From: Dictyostelium discoideum
Taxonomy: Eukaryota
Direction: 5' to 3'
DNA: 64,000 nt
NCBI GenBank assembly: GCA_000004695.1
Contig: CM000151.3
Coordinates: 7,680,001-7,744,000 of the forward strand
Positions within the stretch are counted from its first letter, which is position 1. Each line of letters starts with the position of its first letter. Below are positions 16,333-58,100 of this stretch, piece after piece. The translations under genes and the position numbers were made by a program. The notes under the pieces were generated by a model. It was not told the DNA's origin. It made no database searches and saw only the letters and a list, made by a program, of their open reading frames with translations.

Positions 16333-17427
16333 TTAATTTAATATATTTATTATTTTTAAAAATTCACTATTATTATTATTATCATTATCTTCAATAATTG
16401 TTGAATAATTATTTATAAAAATACCTAAATATTTTAAATTTTTAGGTAATGATGAAATTGATAATTGTTGATTAAAATGTGTTGATCTAAATTCTAATCT
16501 TGTTATTGAATTTGAAAGTGAAGATGGTAAAATTGGTTGATTAAATGATGAATCAAATTTTAATTTTAATAAATTTGGTAATGATTCTGATGATAGTGAA
16601 GATGGTGGTGGGAAAATTGGTTGATTAAATGATGAACCAAATTTTAAAATCCTTAAATTTCTAGGTAATGAATTCGGCAATATAACTTGATTAAAAGATG
16701 ATCCAAATGTTATTTTTTCAATTGAATTTGGTAAAACATTACATTGAATTTCAGTATTAAATGAAACACCAAATTTTAAAACCCTTAATTTCGACAACCC
16801 ATCCAAATCACCAATCTTTAAATAACCATTAAATGTCCAACCAAATTCTAAAAATGTCAATGTCTTTGGTAATGTCCTATCATCCAATTCCTGACAAAAT
16901 GAATCTGACAACTTTATTGAAGTAATTGATTTTGAAAATATTGTCTCATCAATTAAACAATCATAATCTCTACCAAATGAAATATTTTCAACTTTATTTA
17001 ATGATAAATTATTATTATCATCATCATTATTATTATTTGATAATTTTGTAAAATTTTGATTGAAATCTCTATTTAAAATTAAAGTTTTTAAAGTTATTGG
17101 TATTTGAAATTGATTTTGATTAAAGTTTAATGAATATTTAAGATCAATTAATTCAACGCCAATTGGTAATGATTTGATGGGTTGATTAAAGTATTTACCA
17201 AATTTTAAATATTTAATTGTATTATCTGGTATTAAATTTATTGGTATCTCTATATTCATATCCCATTCCATTTTTACCAAATATTCTTTATCTTTAAATA
17301 ACTTATATTGTTCAACATTTTTAAAAACATTATACTTTTTACTATAATTTTTATATAATCTTAATATTTTAAAAATAATATTTTTTATATATAAATTTCT
17401 AAATACTTTATAAAATAAAATATCCAT
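16333..17427 (-). CDS. FNIP-repeat-containing protein (Dictyostelium-expanded FNIP/DUF repeat family), 364 aa.
   Basis: Tandem ~22-aa repeats with LP.sL..L.FG..FNQ.I periodicity, for example LPNSIEKITFGSSFNQVILPNSLPRNLRILKFGSSFNQPI. Confidence 0.8.
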   Translation of the reverse strand: MDILFYKVFRNLYIKNIIFKILRLYKNYSKKYNVFKNVEQYKLFKDKEYLVKMEWDMNIEIPINLIPDNTIKYLKFGKYFNQPIKSLPIGVELIDLKYSLNFNQNQFQIPITLKTLILNRDFNQNFTKLSNNNNDDDNNNLSLNKVENISFGRDYDCLIDETIFSKSITSIKLSDSFCQELDDRTLPKTLTFLEFGWTFNGYLKIGDLDGLSKLRVLKFGVSFNTEIQCNVLPNSIEKITFGSSFNQVILPNSLPRNLRILKFGSSFNQPIFPPPSSLSSESLPNLLKLKFDSSFNQPILPSSLSNSITRLEFRSTHFNQQLSISSLPKNLKYLGIFINNYSTIIEDNDNNNNSEFLKIINILN

Positions 17428-37197: not shown

Positions 37198-42630
<5,433 letters not shown>

Positions 42631-47569: not shown

Positions 47570-48144
47570 TTACATTAAATTACAAGATGATGATGATGAT
47601 GATGAAGTTGATGATAATTTCGAATTTATTGATTTTTCAATTAATTTAATTTGATTTTGTGGCATTTTTGAAGAGAATTCTAATGTTCCAGCCAATGAAT
47701 ATAATTGTTGAAGTGCAGAGGGCTGATAAGTTGCTTTATTATTTAAATCGGGTATTAAATCATTTTGAAGTAGTGCTATTGCAATTGGTTTCATTGGATC
47801 ACGTTTACGAATCTCTGTGAAATAATTTGTAAAGTTATTATATGAATTACTTGAACCTTGTAGAGTGAAACACACAATAAACAAATCTGTAGTATCAAAA
47901 TCCGATTGTGATAATGATGTTGATTTCTCTTTAAATCTAAGTTTACTATTATATGATTTACCTACATAGTTTAAATTATTTACAAATGTAGTTTTACCAA
48001 TTCCTGAATCACCAATTATATAAATTATTTTCTCTTTATTTGTCACTTTATTCTTTTTTATTGTTTCTAAATTTGTTTCATTAATGATTCTACTTTCAAA
48101 ATCAAATAATTTCATTGAATTCATTGATGAAGTTATTGTTAATG

Positions 48145-48176
<32 letters not shown>

Positions 48177-50093
48177 GTTGATTTACCATCAGTTATATTT
48201 GATTCTACAATTTCTGCTCTTCTTTGACCACCAACTCTAAAATTTTCAAAATAACCAGTATTTGAATTATAAACAAATTTTGGATCAACTTGAAGATTTG
48301 GATTAATTTTATACCATGGCTCATTTACTTTAATATATGATGGTACACCATATTGTTTAAAAATGACATTATTCTTTGGAGTGGTTGAAGTTGTAGTAGT
48401 GGTCGTAGTAGTGGTAGTAGTTGTTGTTGTAGTTGTTTTTGAAGAATCATTATCATTATCATTTTCATTTCCTTTAATTACAGTAAAATTATCTTTATTT
48501 AAATCATCTAAAATTTCATTCATTTCTTCACAAATATCACCTTGATCTTTAATTTCATTTTGATATTTATCAAATTGTTCTTTTGAACTTTCACGATAAC
48601 AAATTGCTAAAAACATTTGAGTGATTAATTCAAACTTTTTAAAATTAATACATACACCACCTGATCTTTCAGCCAAATCTGAATAGAATATACTTGTACC
48701 CAATGCTCTAACACCATAGATTTTAATACCTCTATCAAAGAGATCATCGCATTCTTTGAACCAATTTATATTTAAATTTGTGTAGGTTGGTTCATGTGGA
48801 TTTGAATCACCAATCATTACGAATGCTTTTGAAGTATGTTCAGACCAACTTAGCTCCTTTGCACGGTAAAGCGCATATTCATATGCTTCAGGTTCATCAC
48901 CACCAGATGTATTTGGCACCATATTGATGAATGATACGATCTCGTCAATGTTGGATGAAAGATCCAATACTTTTAAAACGTTTACACCATCACAATAATC
49001 ACCCATACCCATAATACCAATTTTAATATTTGGAATATCTTTCATTAATCTATTTACAGTTTGAACGATTTGAGTACGAACTGATTTAATAATGGTTGCC
49101 ATTGACCCGGTTGTATCAAAACAAAATACAATCTCAACATCTGCTGACATTGACGATTGAACGAAATTCTTTAATAAATAATCATCTTCCATCTTCTCTT
49201 GTTCTTTTTGAATTCTTTCTCTTTCATTTCTTTCTTCAATTTCTTTTTCAATTTCATATTGTGATGGTTTTGATGATCCTGATCCTGTTCCTGATCCTGA
49301 TGATTTACCATTATATCTATTTCTATATGATTCACTATCACTATCACTATCACTTGATGTATCACTTTCATAACCTTTAGTTTTACTATAATTATTATTA
49401 TTATTTTTATTATTATATTTATATTTTGATAGTGGTTCTTTTTTATTTAATGTTGATCCTGTTGTTGTTGTTGTTGTCGTTGTTGTAGGTAGTGGTGTTC
49501 CAATTTTCATATCAATAGTATCATAACAATTAATATTCTCTTGTAAACTCATACTCTCTGTATATTTAGTATCTGTACCAGTTTTATATAAACTAACAGA
49601 GTTTAAATATGAACGTAATAATGGTATTTGAGTTTGTAATGATGTTCTAATATGACTATTTAATTTTAATTTTAATTTTAATTTTAATTTTAATTTTAAT
49701 TTTTTTTTTAAAAATGTTAATATTAATGATAATTGATCTGATAAAATAACTATATATATATACATATATATTAAAAACTTACGATACTAAATGTGAAACT
49801 TTTAAACCTGCATTATTTGGAATTTCAACTGGATAATCTTTATCTAAATATTTAATAGTTAATTTAATCTCTTTAATTAAGATCATATGAATTGTTGACT
49901 CTTTTTTAATACCACATGCTCCAATTGCTTTTGATAAGATATTTGATAAAACATCACCAGCAAAGTGTAATTGAAATTGATAGCTTTTATTTTTTGTTCT
50001 CTCTGCAACCTTGTTATATAATACTGACAAGGTATCTGAAATTTCAATATCCAATGAAAATGTTATAGTTGGTGTTTTAATTAAAACTAACAT
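47570..50093 (-). CDS. Multidomain protein with an N-terminal ubiquitin-like domain, a vWA (MIDAS) domain and a C-terminal divergent Ras-like small GTPase ending in CaaX box CNLM. Two exons about 49783..50093 and 47570..49655, about 798 aa.
   Basis: Exon 1 is MLVLIKTPTITFSLDIEISDTLSVLYNKVAERTKNKSYQFQLHFAGDVL...ESTIHMILIKE... (beta-grasp) with a GTAAGT donor. Intron 1 (about 127 bp) contains (TTAAAA)n, and the acceptor AATAG gives S|HIRTSLQ... The vWA domain has VEIVFCFDTTGSMATIIKSVRTQIV...IGIMGMGDYCDG...GGDEPEAYEYAL (D-x-T-x-S MIDAS). The GTPase P-loop is IIYIIGDSGIGKTTFVNNL, with a QNDL (NKxD-like) motif and the C-terminal ...SSSSSSSCNLM*. The phases are consistent, and the total is 2397 nt. 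Confidence 0.65.
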
Positions 50094-51825: not shown

Positions 51826-52209
51826 TTATAAATCTGTGATATGTTTATATTTAATTTTATCATTTTCTTTTCTTTCAGCGATTTCTTTTGGTGTAACAAT
51901 ATATTGTGGGTTTTGTCTAAGGAATTCAGTGATTGGATTCTTTTTAACAATTTTTTCGACTACGTGTGCTTTTCTCTTTGAAACTGGTGCACATTCTCTA
52001 AAGTGAACTTGATCACCAACTGCACAAATATCATTTGGATCGTGAATCATATATTTGGTAGTTTTATAATTTAAAGCTGAATATTTTCCTTTATCAAAAT
52101 ATAATCTCTTTACTTGACACATTGCTGTTTTAGTATGTGTCTTTGAAATACAAACACCTGAAATAAACTTTTGATGTTTATGAACAATTTCAAAAATTTT
52201 TGAGATCAT
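51826..52209 (-). CDS. mrps17: Mitochondrial ribosomal protein S17 (uS17m), 127 aa.
   Basis: The uS17 signature is ...GVCISKTHTKTAMCQVKRLYFDKGKYSALNYKTTKYMIHDPNDICAVGDQVHFRECAPVSKRKAHVV. Confidence 0.75.
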   Translation of the reverse strand: MISKIFEIVHKHQKFISGVCISKTHTKTAMCQVKRLYFDKGKYSALNYKTTKYMIHDPNDICAVGDQVHFRECAPVSKRKAHVVEKIVKKNPITEFLRQNPQYIVTPKEIAERKENDKIKYKHITDL

Positions 52210-53734: not shown

Positions 53735-56700
53735 TAAATTTTTTTAAAATATTAACACTATTTATTTATATATACATATGAATTAAAGTGGTCATATTCA
53801 ATTTGGTTTATTATCAGAAGATGATATAGTTAGATTATCACATGTTCAAATTGTTAATAGAGAATTATTTGATTTAGTAAAGAGAAAACCAACACCATAT
53901 GGTGTATTAGATAATAAATTGGGTACAAGCGATAAACAAGCAATGTGTACAACATGTGGATTAAGTATTGTCGATTGTGTTGGTCATTTTGGATATATTA
54001 AATTACAATTACCAGTTTTTCATATTGGATATTTAAAGAATATTATGAACATTTTACAAATGATTTGCAAGAGTTGTTCAACCATTCTATTGAATGAAGA
54101 GAAGAAACAATATTATCTAAGAAAGATGAGAAATAAAAAGATGGATAATCTACAAAGGAAGTCATTATTGAAAAAGATATTTTTAGAGTGTAGAAAAACC
54201 AAAGAATGTTTGAAATGCGGTTCAACCAATGGTATGATTAAAAAGAGTGGTGCATTCAAGATCATTCATGAAAAGTATAAAGGAAAGACAGAGTCATTGC
54301 AAGACTATTACGCATTGTATGATGACGCCATTAAATACAATCCAGAGATGAAATCACATATAAAGAAAGCACAAGACGATTTGAACCCATTGGTGGCCTT
54401 GAACTTGTTTAAAAAGATCTCTTATCAAGATATTGAAATTATGAATATGGATCCAGTGATTGGTAGACCTGAAAGATTGATCCTAACCTATATGTTGGTG
54501 CCACCGGTATCAATTCGTCCATCGGTACCAATGGATGGTGGTAGTGGCACCAATGAGGATGATTTGACAATGAAACTATCAGAGATATTGCATATCAATG
54601 AACATATTAGATCCAATGTGGATAGAGCAGAGATGTCTGCAATTATGGAGGATTGGGATTATTTACAAGCATCATGTGCAATCTATATCAATTCAGATGT
54701 TCCAGGTTTACCATTACAAATGAAACCAACCAAAGCAGTACGTGGTTTATCACAACGTCTCAAGGGTAAGACAGGCAGATTTCGTGGTAATCTATCGGGT
54801 AAACGTGTTGATTTCTCTGGTCGTACTGTAATTTCACCCGATCCAAATTTAAATATCGATGAGGTTGCAGTACCACAATTGATTGCATTGACAATGACTT
54901 ATCCTGAACGTGTAACCGATTATAATATTGAACGTCTTCAAAAGTATGTTATCAATGGTCCAGATCGTCATCCAGGTGCAAACTATATCATCTATGCCGA
55001 TGGTGTAAAGAAATGGTTGAAATTTGGTAATCGTGAAAAGTTTGCAGCAGAATTGAAAATTGGTGATATCGTGGAACGTCATATTATCGATGGTGATATC
55101 ATGTTGTTCAATCGTCAACCTTCACTTCATAAACTTTCGATTATGTCTCACAAAGCAAGAGTTATGCCATGGAGAACACTTCGTTTCAATGAATGCGTTT
55201 GTACACCTTACAATGCAGATTTCGATGGTGATGAAATGAATATTCATTTACCACAAACAGAGGAAGCCAGAGCAGAGGCAACCATTCTCATGGGTGTCAC
55301 TAACAATTTGATCACTCCAAGAAATGGTGAACCATTGGTTGCAGCAACTCAAGATTTTCTTACTGCTTCCTATTTGATTTCACGTCGTGATGCTTTCTAT
55401 GAAAGATACCGTTTCGCTCTAATGTGTACTCACTTTGCAGATGCAAATGAACATATCGATTTACCACCACCTGCCATTTTGAAACCAGTTGAACTTTGGA
55501 CAGGTAAACAAATTTTCGAAGTACTCTTACGTCCATCGGTCAAATCACATGTTTTATGCAATTTTGAAACTCGTTCACGTACCTATTCAAAGAATCTCTA
55601 TATGTGTCCAAAGGATGGTTATGTTTATTTTAGAAATTCCGAATTAATGTGTGGTTCAATCGATAAATCAATCATTGGTGGTGGTAATAAGAATTCATTG
55701 TTTCATATTCTCATGAGAGATTTCTCACCAACCATAGCTGCCAATTGTATGACACGTTTAGCAAAACTTTGTGCTCGTTTCCTTGGTGATCAAGGTTTTT
55801 CAATTGGTATACCCGATATTAAACCAGCCGAAGATTTAGATAGAAAGAAACGTGAAATCATTGAAACTGCCTACAAGAAATGTGCAGTATTCTTAAAGGA
55901 TTATGAAAGTGGTAGTTTACAATTAAGTAGTGGTTGCTCGATGGAACAAACATTTGAGGCGAAAATGAATCAAACTCTATCACAAATTCGTGATGATTGT
56001 GGTAAGCTTTGTGTTAATGATTTACCAAATTACAATTCACCATTGATTATGGGTCTATGTGGTTCAAAAGGTTCAAACATTAATATTGCTCAAATGATCT
56101 GTTGTGTAGGTCAACAGATTGTCAATGGTACTCGTATTCCAAATGGTTTCACCAATAGAACTACACCACATTTCAAACATTTTGCAAAGAATCCAAAATC
56201 AAAAGGTTTCGTTTCAAATAGTTTCTATACTGGTATGATTCCAACAGAATTCTTTTTTCACACTATGGGTGGTAGAGAGGGTTTGGTAGATACTGCTGTA
56301 AAAACTGCTGAAACTGGTTATATGCAACGTCGTCTAATGAAAGCTTTAGAGGATCTTTCAACTCATTATGATTATACTGTACGTGATTCAATTGGTGGTA
56401 TTGTTCAATTCATTTATGGTGATGATGGTTTAGATCCAGCAGGTATGGAAGCAAAAGATAGACCTGTAGATTTCCTCCGTGCAATGATGAGTGTTAAATC
56501 AACTCGTCAATGTAGAAATGAACCAGAAATGAAACCATTTGAAATTCGTAAACTCGTTGAATCCATTATTGACAGCTCTAAATTTGAAGCTTGTACAGAT
56601 TTATTCAAAAATGAAATTAGAGTTTTCTTTAATGGTAATGAAAAAACAAAAGGTTATATTCAAGAATTAATTAGTTTACGTAAACAATTTAAATTATCAT

Positions 56701-58100
56701 CTTTTGATTTAAATGATAATGAAGATGAAATTATTATTGAAGATAATTCTCCAATGGATATTAGTACTACTACTACTACTACCACCACCACCACTACAAA
56801 TAATGCAGTTAAAATAACTAATATCACCACAGATATTGAAATGAATGAAAGTAATAAAGAAGAAAATGATAAAATTGAAAAAGAAAGAATTGAAAAAGAA
56901 AAAGAATCAAAAAGATTAAAATTATTAGGTGAACGTTTTGCAAATGAACATGTTGTAAATCAAATTCATAGAATTACTAAAACTCAAATCGAATTATTTT
57001 TAGATATTTGTTTAGATAAGTACAGTAGAGCTAGAATTGAACCAGGTACAGCAGTTGGTGCAATTGGTGCTCAATCAATTGGTGAACCAGGTACTCAGAT
57101 GACTTTGAAAACTTTCCATTTTGCTGGTGTAGCTTCTATGAATGTAACATTGGGTGTACCTAGAATTAAAGAGATTATCAATGCCGCTAAAAACATTTCA
57201 ACTCCGATCATTACCGCAAGTTTAAATTGTGACTATGATATTAGATCTGCAAGAATTGTAGCTGGTCGTATTGAAAAGACTACATTGGGTCATGTTGCAA
57301 CACACATTAAAGAGGTGGTAAAAAGAGCAGGTTGTTATCTTTCAATTAAAATCGATAAAAACTTTGTAGATTCATTACAATTGGAAATCAATTCAAAAAC
57401 TATCAGTCAATCAATTGCCTCCACCAAAGGTTTGAAATTAAAACCCGAACAAATCACTACCAATGGTGATTACAAACTTAGAATCGTACCTCCAGCCAAT
57501 ATCAGAGAGGGTTCTTTATATTATTTACAATTCTTAAAGAATAATTTACCAGCAGTAATTGTTAAAGGTATTCCAACGGTCAATCGTGTTGTCATTTCAA
57601 AGGTTGATGAAAAACAAGAACGTTATCAACTTTTGGTCGAAGGTTATGATTTACGTGCTGTAATGGCTACACCTGGTATCAAAGGTACTCATACAACTAG
57701 TAATCATATTATGGAATGTGAAAATACTTTGGGTATTGAAACAGCTCGTAATACCATTATGTCTGAAATCGATATGATTATGACAAGTCATGGTATGTCC
57801 ATCGATATTCGTCATGTTATGTTATTGGCTGATCTCATGTCTTTCAAGGGTGAAATCTTGGGTATCACTCGTTTCGGTATCGCTAAAATGAAGGAATCCG
57901 TACTTATGTTGGCTAGTTTTGAAAAGACTACCGATCATCTTTTCGATGCTGCCGTACATCACCGTCAAGATGATATCGTTGGTGTTTCTGAATGTATCAT
58001 TATGGGTGTTGTTATTCCTTTGGGTACAGGTTTATTCAAATTACTCCGTAAATCAAATAAAAATAATTTACCAAAGAAATCTTTACTCTTACAAGATTAA
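53653..58100 (+). CDS. rpc1: DNA-directed RNA polymerase III largest subunit (RPC1/POLR3A). Two exons about 53653..53693 and 53789..58100, 1450 aa.
   Basis: MIELLKEDDAPKK|IGHIQFGLLSEDDIVRLSHVQIV...[45 protein letters not shown]...[23 protein letters not shown]...to...GVVIPLGTGLFKLL is collinear with human POLR3A. It has no heptad CTD, which argues against Pol II and for Pol III. The donor is GTAAGT. Confidence 0.95.

Follow-up and report, generated by a model that had tools for sequence, protein, structure and literature searches.

Does a single chain in Dictyostelium discoideum join ubiquitin-like (UBL) domains, a von Willebrand A (vWA) domain and a small GTPase, and if so, can the GTPase part still act as a switch? 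The question is raised by positions 47,570 to 50,093 of a 64,000-nucleotide stretch of the D. discoideum genome (GenBank assembly GCA_000004695.1, contig CM000151.3, positions 7,680,001 to 7,744,000; hereafter the window), for which a sequence-only reading had proposed one 798-aa polypeptide carrying a UBL domain, a vWA domain with an intact metal ion-dependent adhesion site (MIDAS), a P-loop GTPase and a terminal CaaX box. We are highly confident that the locus is one two-exon gene with identifiable domains, and equally so that its C-terminal module is of Rac ancestry and has lost its switch regions. With somewhat better than even confidence we favour a wider explanation, in which a protein of the order UBL1-UBL2-linker-helix-vWA/MIDAS-WW-like motif-linker-Rac-derived P-loop domain-CaaX would work as an adaptor at a membrane.

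A Rac-derived domain without switch regions

Our comparisons draw on an alignment of 16 family members (nine dictyostelid and seven non-dictyostelid sequences) and on AlphaFold2 (AF2) models of the exon-2 product (694 aa) and of a full-length orthologue (P0003), D. discoideum being represented by the exon-2 product rather than by a full-length model. As judged from its residues, the C-terminal module is a Rac/Rho-derived pseudoGTPase. Its modelled order, beta1-alpha1-one strand-short helix-beta4-alpha3-beta5-alpha4-beta6-alpha5, is that of a G-domain minus one strand of the beta2/beta3 hairpin, and Foldseek matched it to ROP9 (2j0v), RhoA (5jcp) and Rac1 (3th5) with E-values of 2e-6 to 4e-6. 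The C-terminal 249 residues alone, with low-complexity runs removed, found no match at E<=0.01 in the protein collections because a single sequence is too divergent, and a profile of dictyostelid sequences only did work. Against the Protein Data Bank (PDB) it placed Rac2, Rac1, RhoU and Cdc42 first (E 3e-9 to 2e-7), and hhalign paired it with Rac1 at 97.5% probability (E 6.7e-12), leaving gaps of 12 and 14 residues at switch I/beta2 and beta3/switch II. With a profile of this composition, the Rac relationship is independent of the relatives with intact GTPases that are described below. Pfam Ras stayed under its threshold (18.9 bits, cut-off 21.6) and matched residues 680-743 with the second half of the profile only (positions 59-118).

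The motifs of the domain divide into a retained and a missing set. The P-loop residues G652, G657 and K658 are retained in all 16 aligned sequences (Table 1), and so is D736 of the G4 box, which is invariant; in D. discoideum and Tieghemostelium the NKxD Lys has become Gln, whereas the other seven dictyostelid sequences have K or R there. The segment ‘FSSKM’, which aligns with ‘CSAKA/CSSLT’, is a possible G5. What is missing lies between P-loop and beta4, which are separated by 31-37 aa in all nine dictyostelids (36 in D. discoideum) versus 60 in Rac1; intact relatives likewise have 60 in most cases and 59 in one. No DxxG was found in this interval in any of the nine dictyostelid sequences, and the alignment with Rac1 leaves the domain without the catalytic Gln and without the switch I segment. 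In total, the dictyostelid domains lack about 25 residues, comprising switch I/beta2 and beta3/switch II with its DxxGQ. The Rho insert (beta5-alpha4) is gapped in D. discoideum and all dictyostelid orthologues and present only in three relatives (P0029, P0030 and P0032), while C699, a Cys in beta4, is invariant in the dictyostelid domains. From the absence of switch regions we infer that classical switching is no longer open to the domain. The sequence-only reading had noted a degenerate GTPase without the DxxG of switch II, and this stands; its further suggestion of a regulatory GTP-binding module gives way to a Rac-derived pseudoGTPase. The motifs it had listed were recovered at residues 652-659 (GDSGIGKT), 733-737 (LQND(L)) and 795-798 (CNLM), and the GTPase assignment for which it had looked to Pfam came from the profile and Foldseek comparisons instead.

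The C-terminus reads C-x-[ILV]-M in eight of the nine dictyostelid sequences and in three of the seven non-dictyostelid relatives in the alignment, and the Protostelium relative likewise ends in a CaaX box (CNIM). With Met in the X position, the box predicts a farnesyl group and not the geranylgeranyl group typical of Rac. The ninth dictyostelid sequence, from Cavenderia fasciculata (P0004, DFA_12145), has CSII followed by 49 further residues, an extension that is probably a gene-model error (a missed stop or a spurious extra exon).

Distribution and evolution of the family

The architecture, shared by a small family, is conserved across Dictyostelia and extends to other Amoebozoa and to a sponge. 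Full-length orthologues with about 44-54% identity, of the same length and module order, are present in Polysphondylium violaceum, Tieghemostelium lacteum, Cavenderia fasciculata, Acytostelium subglobosum and one further dictyostelid. More distant proteins of the same order come from Stereomyxa (MMETSP transcriptome), from EukProt transcriptomes and from JGI/Logan contigs. Mastigella eilhardi and Protostelium nocturnum came out of an exhaustive profile search over 1.84 billion representatives, which also turned up, against expectation, the calcareous sponge Sycon ciliatum. All these relatives read UBL(s)-vWA-Ras-family domain in Pfam scans. The other Amoebozoa, in which the sequence-only reading had proposed a search for orthologues, hold such relatives in Stereomyxa, Mastigella and Protostelium. 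About 12 representatives at 50% identity cover both the vWA and the GTPase part; relatives of the vWA core by itself are very numerous, 1020 representatives having passed E<1e-30 overall with a profile that also holds ubiquitin and Ras-like regions.

Several non-dictyostelid members, including Stereomyxa, bear an intact Rac domain. Full-length Ras-family Pfam matches of up to 198 bits were obtained for eight relatives (P0027-30, P0032, P0033, P0056 and P0068); the Pfam Ras scores of intact relatives range from 110 to 198 bits, and the orthologue P0001 reaches 24.2 bits. The clearest case, P0030, aligns with human Rac1 over 175 aa without a gap, Rho insert included (E 2e-81; Pfam Ras 146 bits). 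GTPase motifs have decayed elsewhere in the family too, with LHDS in P0031 and VDMPSS in Mastigella (P0075). The protein of Sycon ciliatum (P0065, XP_065194252.1, encoded on a 30-Mb scaffold) reads UBL-UBL-VWA_4-degenerate Ras-like and has GKR, no DxxG, NKET and no CaaX box. As far as these sequences tell, the architecture is thus not confined to Amoebozoa, the sponge case reflecting either common ancestry or gene transfer. The motifs of P0031, Mastigella and the sponge decayed independently, and switch function therefore seems to have been repeatedly dispensable in the UBL-vWA-Rac family.

Paralogues carry the vWA domain in other company: UBL-vWA alone (DDB_G0280503), UBL-vWA-Rad60-SLD, UBL-vWA-EF-hand-WWE and histone H1-vWA, and bivalve molluscs have UBL-UBL-vWA proteins. 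In four of the paralogues (P0016, which is Heterostelium PPL_03939, P0025, P0026 and P0037) the same vWA subtype occurs with linker-histone H1, or with EF-hands plus a WWE domain at the C-terminus. The WWE partner hints at a link of this vWA clade to ubiquitin or poly-ADP-ribose signalling. Relatives in the databases are all labelled ‘hypothetical’ or ‘uncharacterized’, and literature searches on the architecture, on DDB_G0280503 and on PF25106 returned nothing relevant. The statement that no characterised protein has this architecture therefore held in the literature searches; the architecture itself is not unique to the D. discoideum gene.

This family context bears on two other views of the C-terminal domain. 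It could be a neutrally decaying relic attached to a functional UBL-vWA part, given that its identity among dictyostelids (25-44%) is far below that of the vWA domain, that its motifs degenerated independently in three other lineages and that UBL-vWA paralogues without a GTPase, such as DDB_G0280503, are common. We consider this unlikely, as the frame has stayed open, the G-domain fold is modelled with confidence (predicted local distance difference test, pLDDT, 80-91), GxxxxGK[ST] is invariant in nine of nine dictyostelids from several genera and the terminal C-x-[ILV]-M has persisted in all but one of them; neutral decay would not keep such features. A working small GTPase switch, whose GTP-dependent action would bring the vWA/UBL part to membranes, is an improbable reading at the other extreme, although the title of the sequence-only reading implies it. 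The intact and invariant P-loop, the invariant Asp of NKxD, the possible G5 remnant ‘SSK’ and the existence of relatives with intact Rac domains all speak for it. Against it, such a switch would have to operate on a little over half of the Rac1 spacing between P-loop and beta4, with neither switch I/beta2 nor beta3/switch II and hence none of DxxG, the catalytic Gln and the switch I segment that bears the Mg-binding Thr in Rac, with Gln in place of the NKxD Lys, and with a Ras score below the Pfam cut-off. A Rac-derived pseudoGTPase that is maintained without its switch regions fits these observations best.

Table 1. Features of the UBL-vWA-Rac gene and its product (positions are those of the window; residues are those of the 798-aa protein unless stated otherwise)
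Feature	Position	Strand	Description
Exon 1	49783..50093	-	311 nt; ATG at 50093..50091; codes for UBL1 and for the first two strands and helix start of UBL2
Intron	49656..49782	-	127 nt; GTAAGT...ATAG; (TTAAAA)x6 before the acceptor
Exon 2	47570..49655	-	2086 nt, including the TAA stop at 47570..47572
UBL1	49872..50093	-	residues 1-74; ubiquitin-family beta-grasp, no C-terminal Gly-Gly
UBL2 (model-based)	49496..49871 (intron included)	-	residues 75-157; second beta-grasp domain
Low-complexity linker	49262..49495	-	residues 158-235; poly-Thr, Asn-rich, Ser/Asp-rich; pLDDT <50; unalignable among orthologues
Long charged helix	49151..49261	-	residues 236-272; runs into the vWA domain; AF2 helix 132-168 (exon-2 numbering)
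vWA domain	48500..49147	-	residues 274-489; includes the last core helix and two extra helices
MIDAS loop 1	49103..49117	-	D284-T-T286-G-S288 (DxTxS)
Putative MIDAS ligand D357	48896..48904	-	in GGD; replaces the usual Thr
Putative MIDAS ligand D387	48806..48808	-	in IGD
Small beta motif	48236..48367	-	residues 534-577; W551...P-x-F-x-Y-N...G571-Y-F; WW-like spacing
Rac-derived domain (predicted pseudoGTPase)	47603..48046	-	residues 641-788; AF2 pLDDT 80-88
P-loop (G1)	47990..48013	-	GDSGIGKT, residues 652-659; G652, G657 and K658 invariant in 16/16
G4 remnant ([NT]KxD)	47759..47770	-	L733-Q-N-D736
CaaX box	47573..47584	-	C795-N-L-M798; after the poly-Ser tail

The vWA domain, its linkers and a small central motif

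The vWA domain is recognised by Pfam, scoring with VWA_4 over residues 279-389 (35 bits, cut-off 27) and with VWA_2 (27.9 bits, cut-off 27), and its model has a Rossmann-like vWA fold at a pLDDT of about 90. D284, T286 and S288, which lie in FCFDTTGSM (residues 281-289), are invariant in all 16 family members, as are D357 and D387, so that at the level of sequence the MIDAS is complete. The same holds for the last core helix, F445 to E459 (F445…MF..ICYRE459; ITQMFLAICYRE). An intact MIDAS motif had been proposed from the letters alone, as had the ubiquitin-like and vWA domains, and all of these are borne out by the sequence, both Pfam families passing their gathering cut-offs. In Foldseek, the structural neighbours of the domain are p44/Ssl1, integrin beta, Rpn10 and similar proteins, that is, eukaryotic intracellular or integrin domains.

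These neighbours also bear on the kinship with bacterial vWA/MoxR/ubiquitin-like modules that the sequence-only reading had suggested. A eukaryotic offshoot of bacterial vWA-MoxR(-ubiquitin-like) ternary signalling or conflict systems would share the vWA fold with its MIDAS and might account for some weak, possibly prokaryotic vWA-only matches at E ~1e-4 (one named ‘uncharacterized protein YegL’ at its source), but it is highly improbable: the protein matched no PADLOC defence-system vWA/MoxR model and no NCBIfam family beyond weak P-loop or low-complexity noise, Pfam finds no AAA+ module in it, none of the open reading frames (ORFs) examined on the upstream side, which were not scanned with Pfam, was assigned as an AAA+ ATPase, the UBL is of the ubiquitin family proper and the GTPase is Rac, both eukaryotic, and the best vWA structural neighbours are eukaryotic as well.

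The vWA domain is flanked by less familiar elements. The charged helix that leads into it contains an LLxSFVESS motif conserved in the family alignment. Downstream, the small beta motif comprises three short strands (pLDDT ~75-80), with W551 and G571 conserved in at least 90% of sequences, and every family member, the sponge protein among them, shows its consensus W-x-D…P-x-[FY]-x-[FY]-N…G-x-[WF]. Its identity as a WW domain was rejected and the motif left unassigned, as six family segments gave no Pfam WW match at E-values up to 10; the second signature Trp is Phe in dictyostelids, and only the spacing and a few residues are WW-like. Poly-Thr tracts at 48389-48445 and 49451-49480 (16-17 and 9 residues, encoded by ACN repeats) build the disordered linkers. 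Such low-complexity inserts, to which the poly-Ser tail also belongs, are typical of Dictyostelium, and the orthologues do not share them.

Two tandem ubiquitin-like domains

The N-terminus begins with a recognisable ubiquitin-family domain, Pfam ubiquitin (PF00240) matching residues 4-72 with 28.4 bits (cut-off 25.4). Searched against the PDB, UBL1 matched single ubiquitin chains at E 0.005-0.02, the lower values (to 4.5e-13) stemming from the repeats of polyubiquitin chains. In the model of the orthologue P0003 it has the order beta-beta-alpha-beta-beta-beta (pLDDT 87-93) and is the first of two consecutive beta-grasp units (residues 1-69 and 72-153, pLDDT 80-93), the second of which reads E-E-H-E-h-E (pLDDT 80-92). 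The exon-2 half of UBL2 in the model of the D. discoideum exon-2 product (pLDDT 70-83) is consistent with this second unit.

Relatives point in the same direction. Pfam places Rad60-SLD at 20-89 and a best ubiquitin stretch at 99-170 in the sponge protein, where the UBL2 profile aligns weakly at 95-169, and a ubiquitin stretch at 91-156 in the Mastigella protein, at a similar distance upstream of its vWA domain. By sequence, the UBL2 profile gave a probability of 0.3% against ubiquitin in hhalign; its best PDB match, to an ‘IQ and ubiquitin-like domain’ protein, had E 0.078, and the UBL2 region of the sponge reached E 0.0076. The AF2 topology and the ubiquitin-family matches and their position in relatives thus suggest two tandem UBLs instead of the one proposed earlier. 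UBL1 leads directly into UBL2 (…IHMILIKEIKLTI…) without the Gly-Gly of a conjugatable modifier, and both read as built-in, non-conjugatable domains and not as modifiers.

Gene structure and genomic neighbourhood

Joining the two exons gives an in-phase coding sequence of 2397 nt for 798 aa, ending in ...SSSCNLM*, and our recomputed splice and translation agree with the exon coordinates, frame and length first proposed. The start codon stands in the context AAAATG, downstream of DNA with 13% GC, and the intron has a GC content of 7.9% versus 25-28% in the exons; the surrounding region (25% GC) is rich in long homopolymer runs and short GTAAGT…AG introns. Retention of the intron would bring a stop two codons past the donor and leave an ORF of 104 aa. 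Exon 2 is contained in an open frame of 731 codons, the chance probability of which is about 1e-29 given the local base composition. The six TTAAAA repeats at 49656-49700, read in the frame of exon 2, give this 731-aa ORF an artefactual ‘LKLKLKLK’ N-terminus.

A second acceptor at 49592 is also in frame, and its use would drop 21 residues. It was rejected, as these residues align with conserved residues in all orthologues and form the main helix of UBL2 in the orthologue model. UBL2 spans the intron, and acceptor 49655 is therefore favoured over 49592, in line with the 798-aa product of the first description of the locus.

A split into two genes, one for the UBL exon and one for the vWA-GTPase ORF, or some other error in the joined model, has very little probability left. 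Exon 1 alone does form the closed 104-aa ORF, exon 2 lies within an ORF with its own ATG, and the joined sequence occurs in no protein collection, but the 731-aa ORF is missing from them likewise and its first ~35 residues are translated intron, the exons join in phase at consensus splice sites and within a single predicted beta-grasp domain (UBL2 in the orthologue model), and all orthologues are single chains with the same N-terminus, one of them, Polysphondylium-like, being an unbroken ORF from UBL to CaaX on three independent gene-length contigs (2.4-2.5 kb; possibly transcripts). The in-phase join, the colinear orthologues and the domain matches together support the single polypeptide with UBL, vWA/MIDAS, P-loop GTPase-like and CaaX elements that had been read from this locus.

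Neither the 798-aa product nor the 731-aa ORF had an exact entry in the protein collections (5.8 billion clusters, ~15 billion sequences), and a homology search of them returned nothing more than 56% identical to the full protein. The AX4 proteins of flanking genes and paralogues from D. discoideum, D. citrinum, D. firmibasis and D. purpureum do occur there. The gene and its group-4 orthologues are possibly unannotated in, or missing from, public proteomes.

Among the neighbours in the window, an exon-length ORF at 37834-42630 (plus strand) is an exact match to clathrin heavy chain, and 16333-17427 (minus strand) encodes the FNIP-repeat protein DDB_G0277323, with a nearby ORF also matching DDB_G0277177. 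These exact protein matches assign the window to AX4 chromosome 2. By eye, 53919-58100 (plus strand) resembles the largest subunit of RNA polymerase III, and a small ORF at 51826-52209 (minus strand) resembles ribosomal protein S17. None of the flanking genes has an obvious functional tie to the UBL-vWA-GTPase gene.

A possible role at the membrane

The family may have originated in the fusion of a UBL-UBL-vWA protein to a genuine Rac-type GTPase, a form that Stereomyxa and several transcript-length contigs still show. The GTPase of the dictyostelid lineage would then have shed switch I/beta2 and beta3/switch II and retained its fold, P-loop, guanine-specifying Asp and CaaX box. The switch regions of Rho proteins sense the gamma-phosphate and are read by guanine nucleotide exchange factors (GEFs), GTPase-activating proteins (GAPs), the guanine nucleotide dissociation inhibitor (GDI) and effectors with a Cdc42/Rac interactive binding (CRIB) motif. 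Because all of these read the switch regions, none of them would be expected to handle the dictyostelid domain, which would no longer be a GTP/GDP conformational switch. It might instead serve as a constitutive farnesylated membrane-attachment and scaffold module, which may still bind nucleotide and which would keep the vWA/MIDAS domain, together with the pair of non-conjugatable UBLs and their long disordered linkers, at the membrane surface. There, a partner protein could offer an acidic residue to the MIDAS site, and the UBLs could dock partners of the ubiquitin-receptor type or the MIDAS site itself. We hold this combination of a constitutive farnesylated anchor with a MIDAS/UBL adaptor to be an even call.

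Several observations weigh against the adaptor explanation. The protein collections searched contain neither the protein nor a near-identical sequence, the alignments behind the AF2 models are shallow (16-21 sequences) and the second UBL is not significant from sequence alone. The invariant P-loop could mean that a real nucleotide-dependent function persists, for instance the binding of ATP, for which RhoBTB3 is an example. It is uncertain how stably the protein would bind membranes, because position a1 of the CaaX box is Asn and a second signal is lacking, the box being preceded by the poly-Ser tail alone and by neither a polybasic stretch nor a Cys for palmitoylation; judging from these residues, membrane attachment may be weak or directed to endomembranes. 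Further, Stereomyxa, the sponge and P0028, P0029 and P0032 have no CaaX box, so that anchoring is not a family-wide trait.

Beyond the adaptor explanation, two extensions are worth stating at a lower level of confidence. By analogy with known MIDAS-UBL pairs, the MIDAS site might take the UBLs as its ligands, with autoinhibition (in cis) or assembly (in trans) as the outcome and with GTP control in the relatives that have an intact Rac; such self-recognition is a long shot. It is equally doubtful, though conceivable, that the family represents an ancient atypical Rac class, perhaps older than the split of Amoebozoa and animals, in which a membrane-anchored G-domain, an integrin-like MIDAS and tandem UBLs as its cis or trans ligands would undergo head-to-tail assembly or autoinhibition at membranes, GTP-gated in the ancestral form and constitutive in the dictyostelid pseudoGTPase form, and of which the present gene would encode a 21st, cryptic Rho-family protein of D. 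discoideum, missed by the published inventories.

All modules of the protein are known domain types and atypical multidomain Rho proteins are already established, hence the architecture is not categorically new; it is a solid specialist lead rather than a surprise for the field, and it bears on no long-standing open question. If confirmed, it would add a cryptic Rho-derived protein to the D. discoideum Rho inventory of 20 rac genes. Within one orthologous family it would provide a natural series, with intact Rac at one end and a switch-less pseudoGTPase at the other, in which the role of a G-domain after the loss of its switch could be studied, and it would offer a genetically tractable case in which UBL domains lie next to an intracellular vWA domain whose MIDAS is complete.

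Comparison with known systems

A review of 2021 lists 20 rac genes and one pseudogene in the Rho inventory of D. discoideum, with no vWA- or UBL-containing member (PMC8305917). The protein described here resembles Rac1 and the Rac GTPases in its best profile and fold match, its P-loop (GDxxxGKT) and its terminal CaaX box. It is unlike them in lacking switch I/beta2, beta3/switch II (DxxGQ), the Rho insert and the NKxD Lys, and in its 640-residue N-terminal extension.

Among atypical Rho proteins, RhoBTB3 lacks most of the GTPase domain and keeps a CAAX box that contributes to its localisation at Golgi membranes (PMC8305917, PMC4931677). Both are multidomain proteins in which a Rho domain has lost most GTPase features and the C-terminal CAAX box is kept, and RhoBTB3 is likewise coupled to modules of the ubiquitin system. 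However, the Rho domain of RhoBTB3 is N-terminal and followed by BTB/BACK domains that recruit cullin-3, whereas that of the D. discoideum protein is C-terminal and accompanied by UBLs and vWA/MIDAS. The two have no homology outside the G-domain, and D. discoideum already has a RhoBTB orthologue in RacA.

A second point of reference is p190RhoGAP, which contains the pseudoGTPase domains pG1 and pG2, and for these a published study describes MANT-GTPγS binding and thermal-shift assays (PMC5593906). The likeness lies in a G-domain fold that sits within a larger protein and, after loss of catalytic and switch motifs, would remain as a structural or regulatory module. The pG1 and pG2 domains reportedly lack nucleotide binding. 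In contrast to them, the dictyostelid domain has kept its P-loop and the guanine-specifying Asp, so that nucleotide binding may persist, and the two cases are of independent origin.

For the N-terminal half, the MIDAS domain of Rea1/Mdn1 recognises a UBL domain in each of Rsa4 and Ytm1; the binding is integrin-like and involves an acidic residue (PMC6624252). A MIDAS-type vWA domain and UBLs are both present in the D. discoideum protein as well. In Rea1, MIDAS and UBL reside on separate proteins and are driven by an AAA+ motor, whereas here they form one chain, and no sequence relationship to Midasin was found. In Rea1 with Rsa4/Ytm1, a known precedent for an intracellular MIDAS ligand, that ligand is a UBL. 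Copines (C2-C2-vWA) differ in that their membrane targeting is Ca2+-dependent and runs through C2 domains and not through a prenylated G-domain, in having no UBLs and in a vWA domain of another subfamily. Nevertheless, they too pair a membrane-targeting module with a vWA domain that is intracellular, and Dictyostelium possesses both copines and the UBL-vWA-Rac family.

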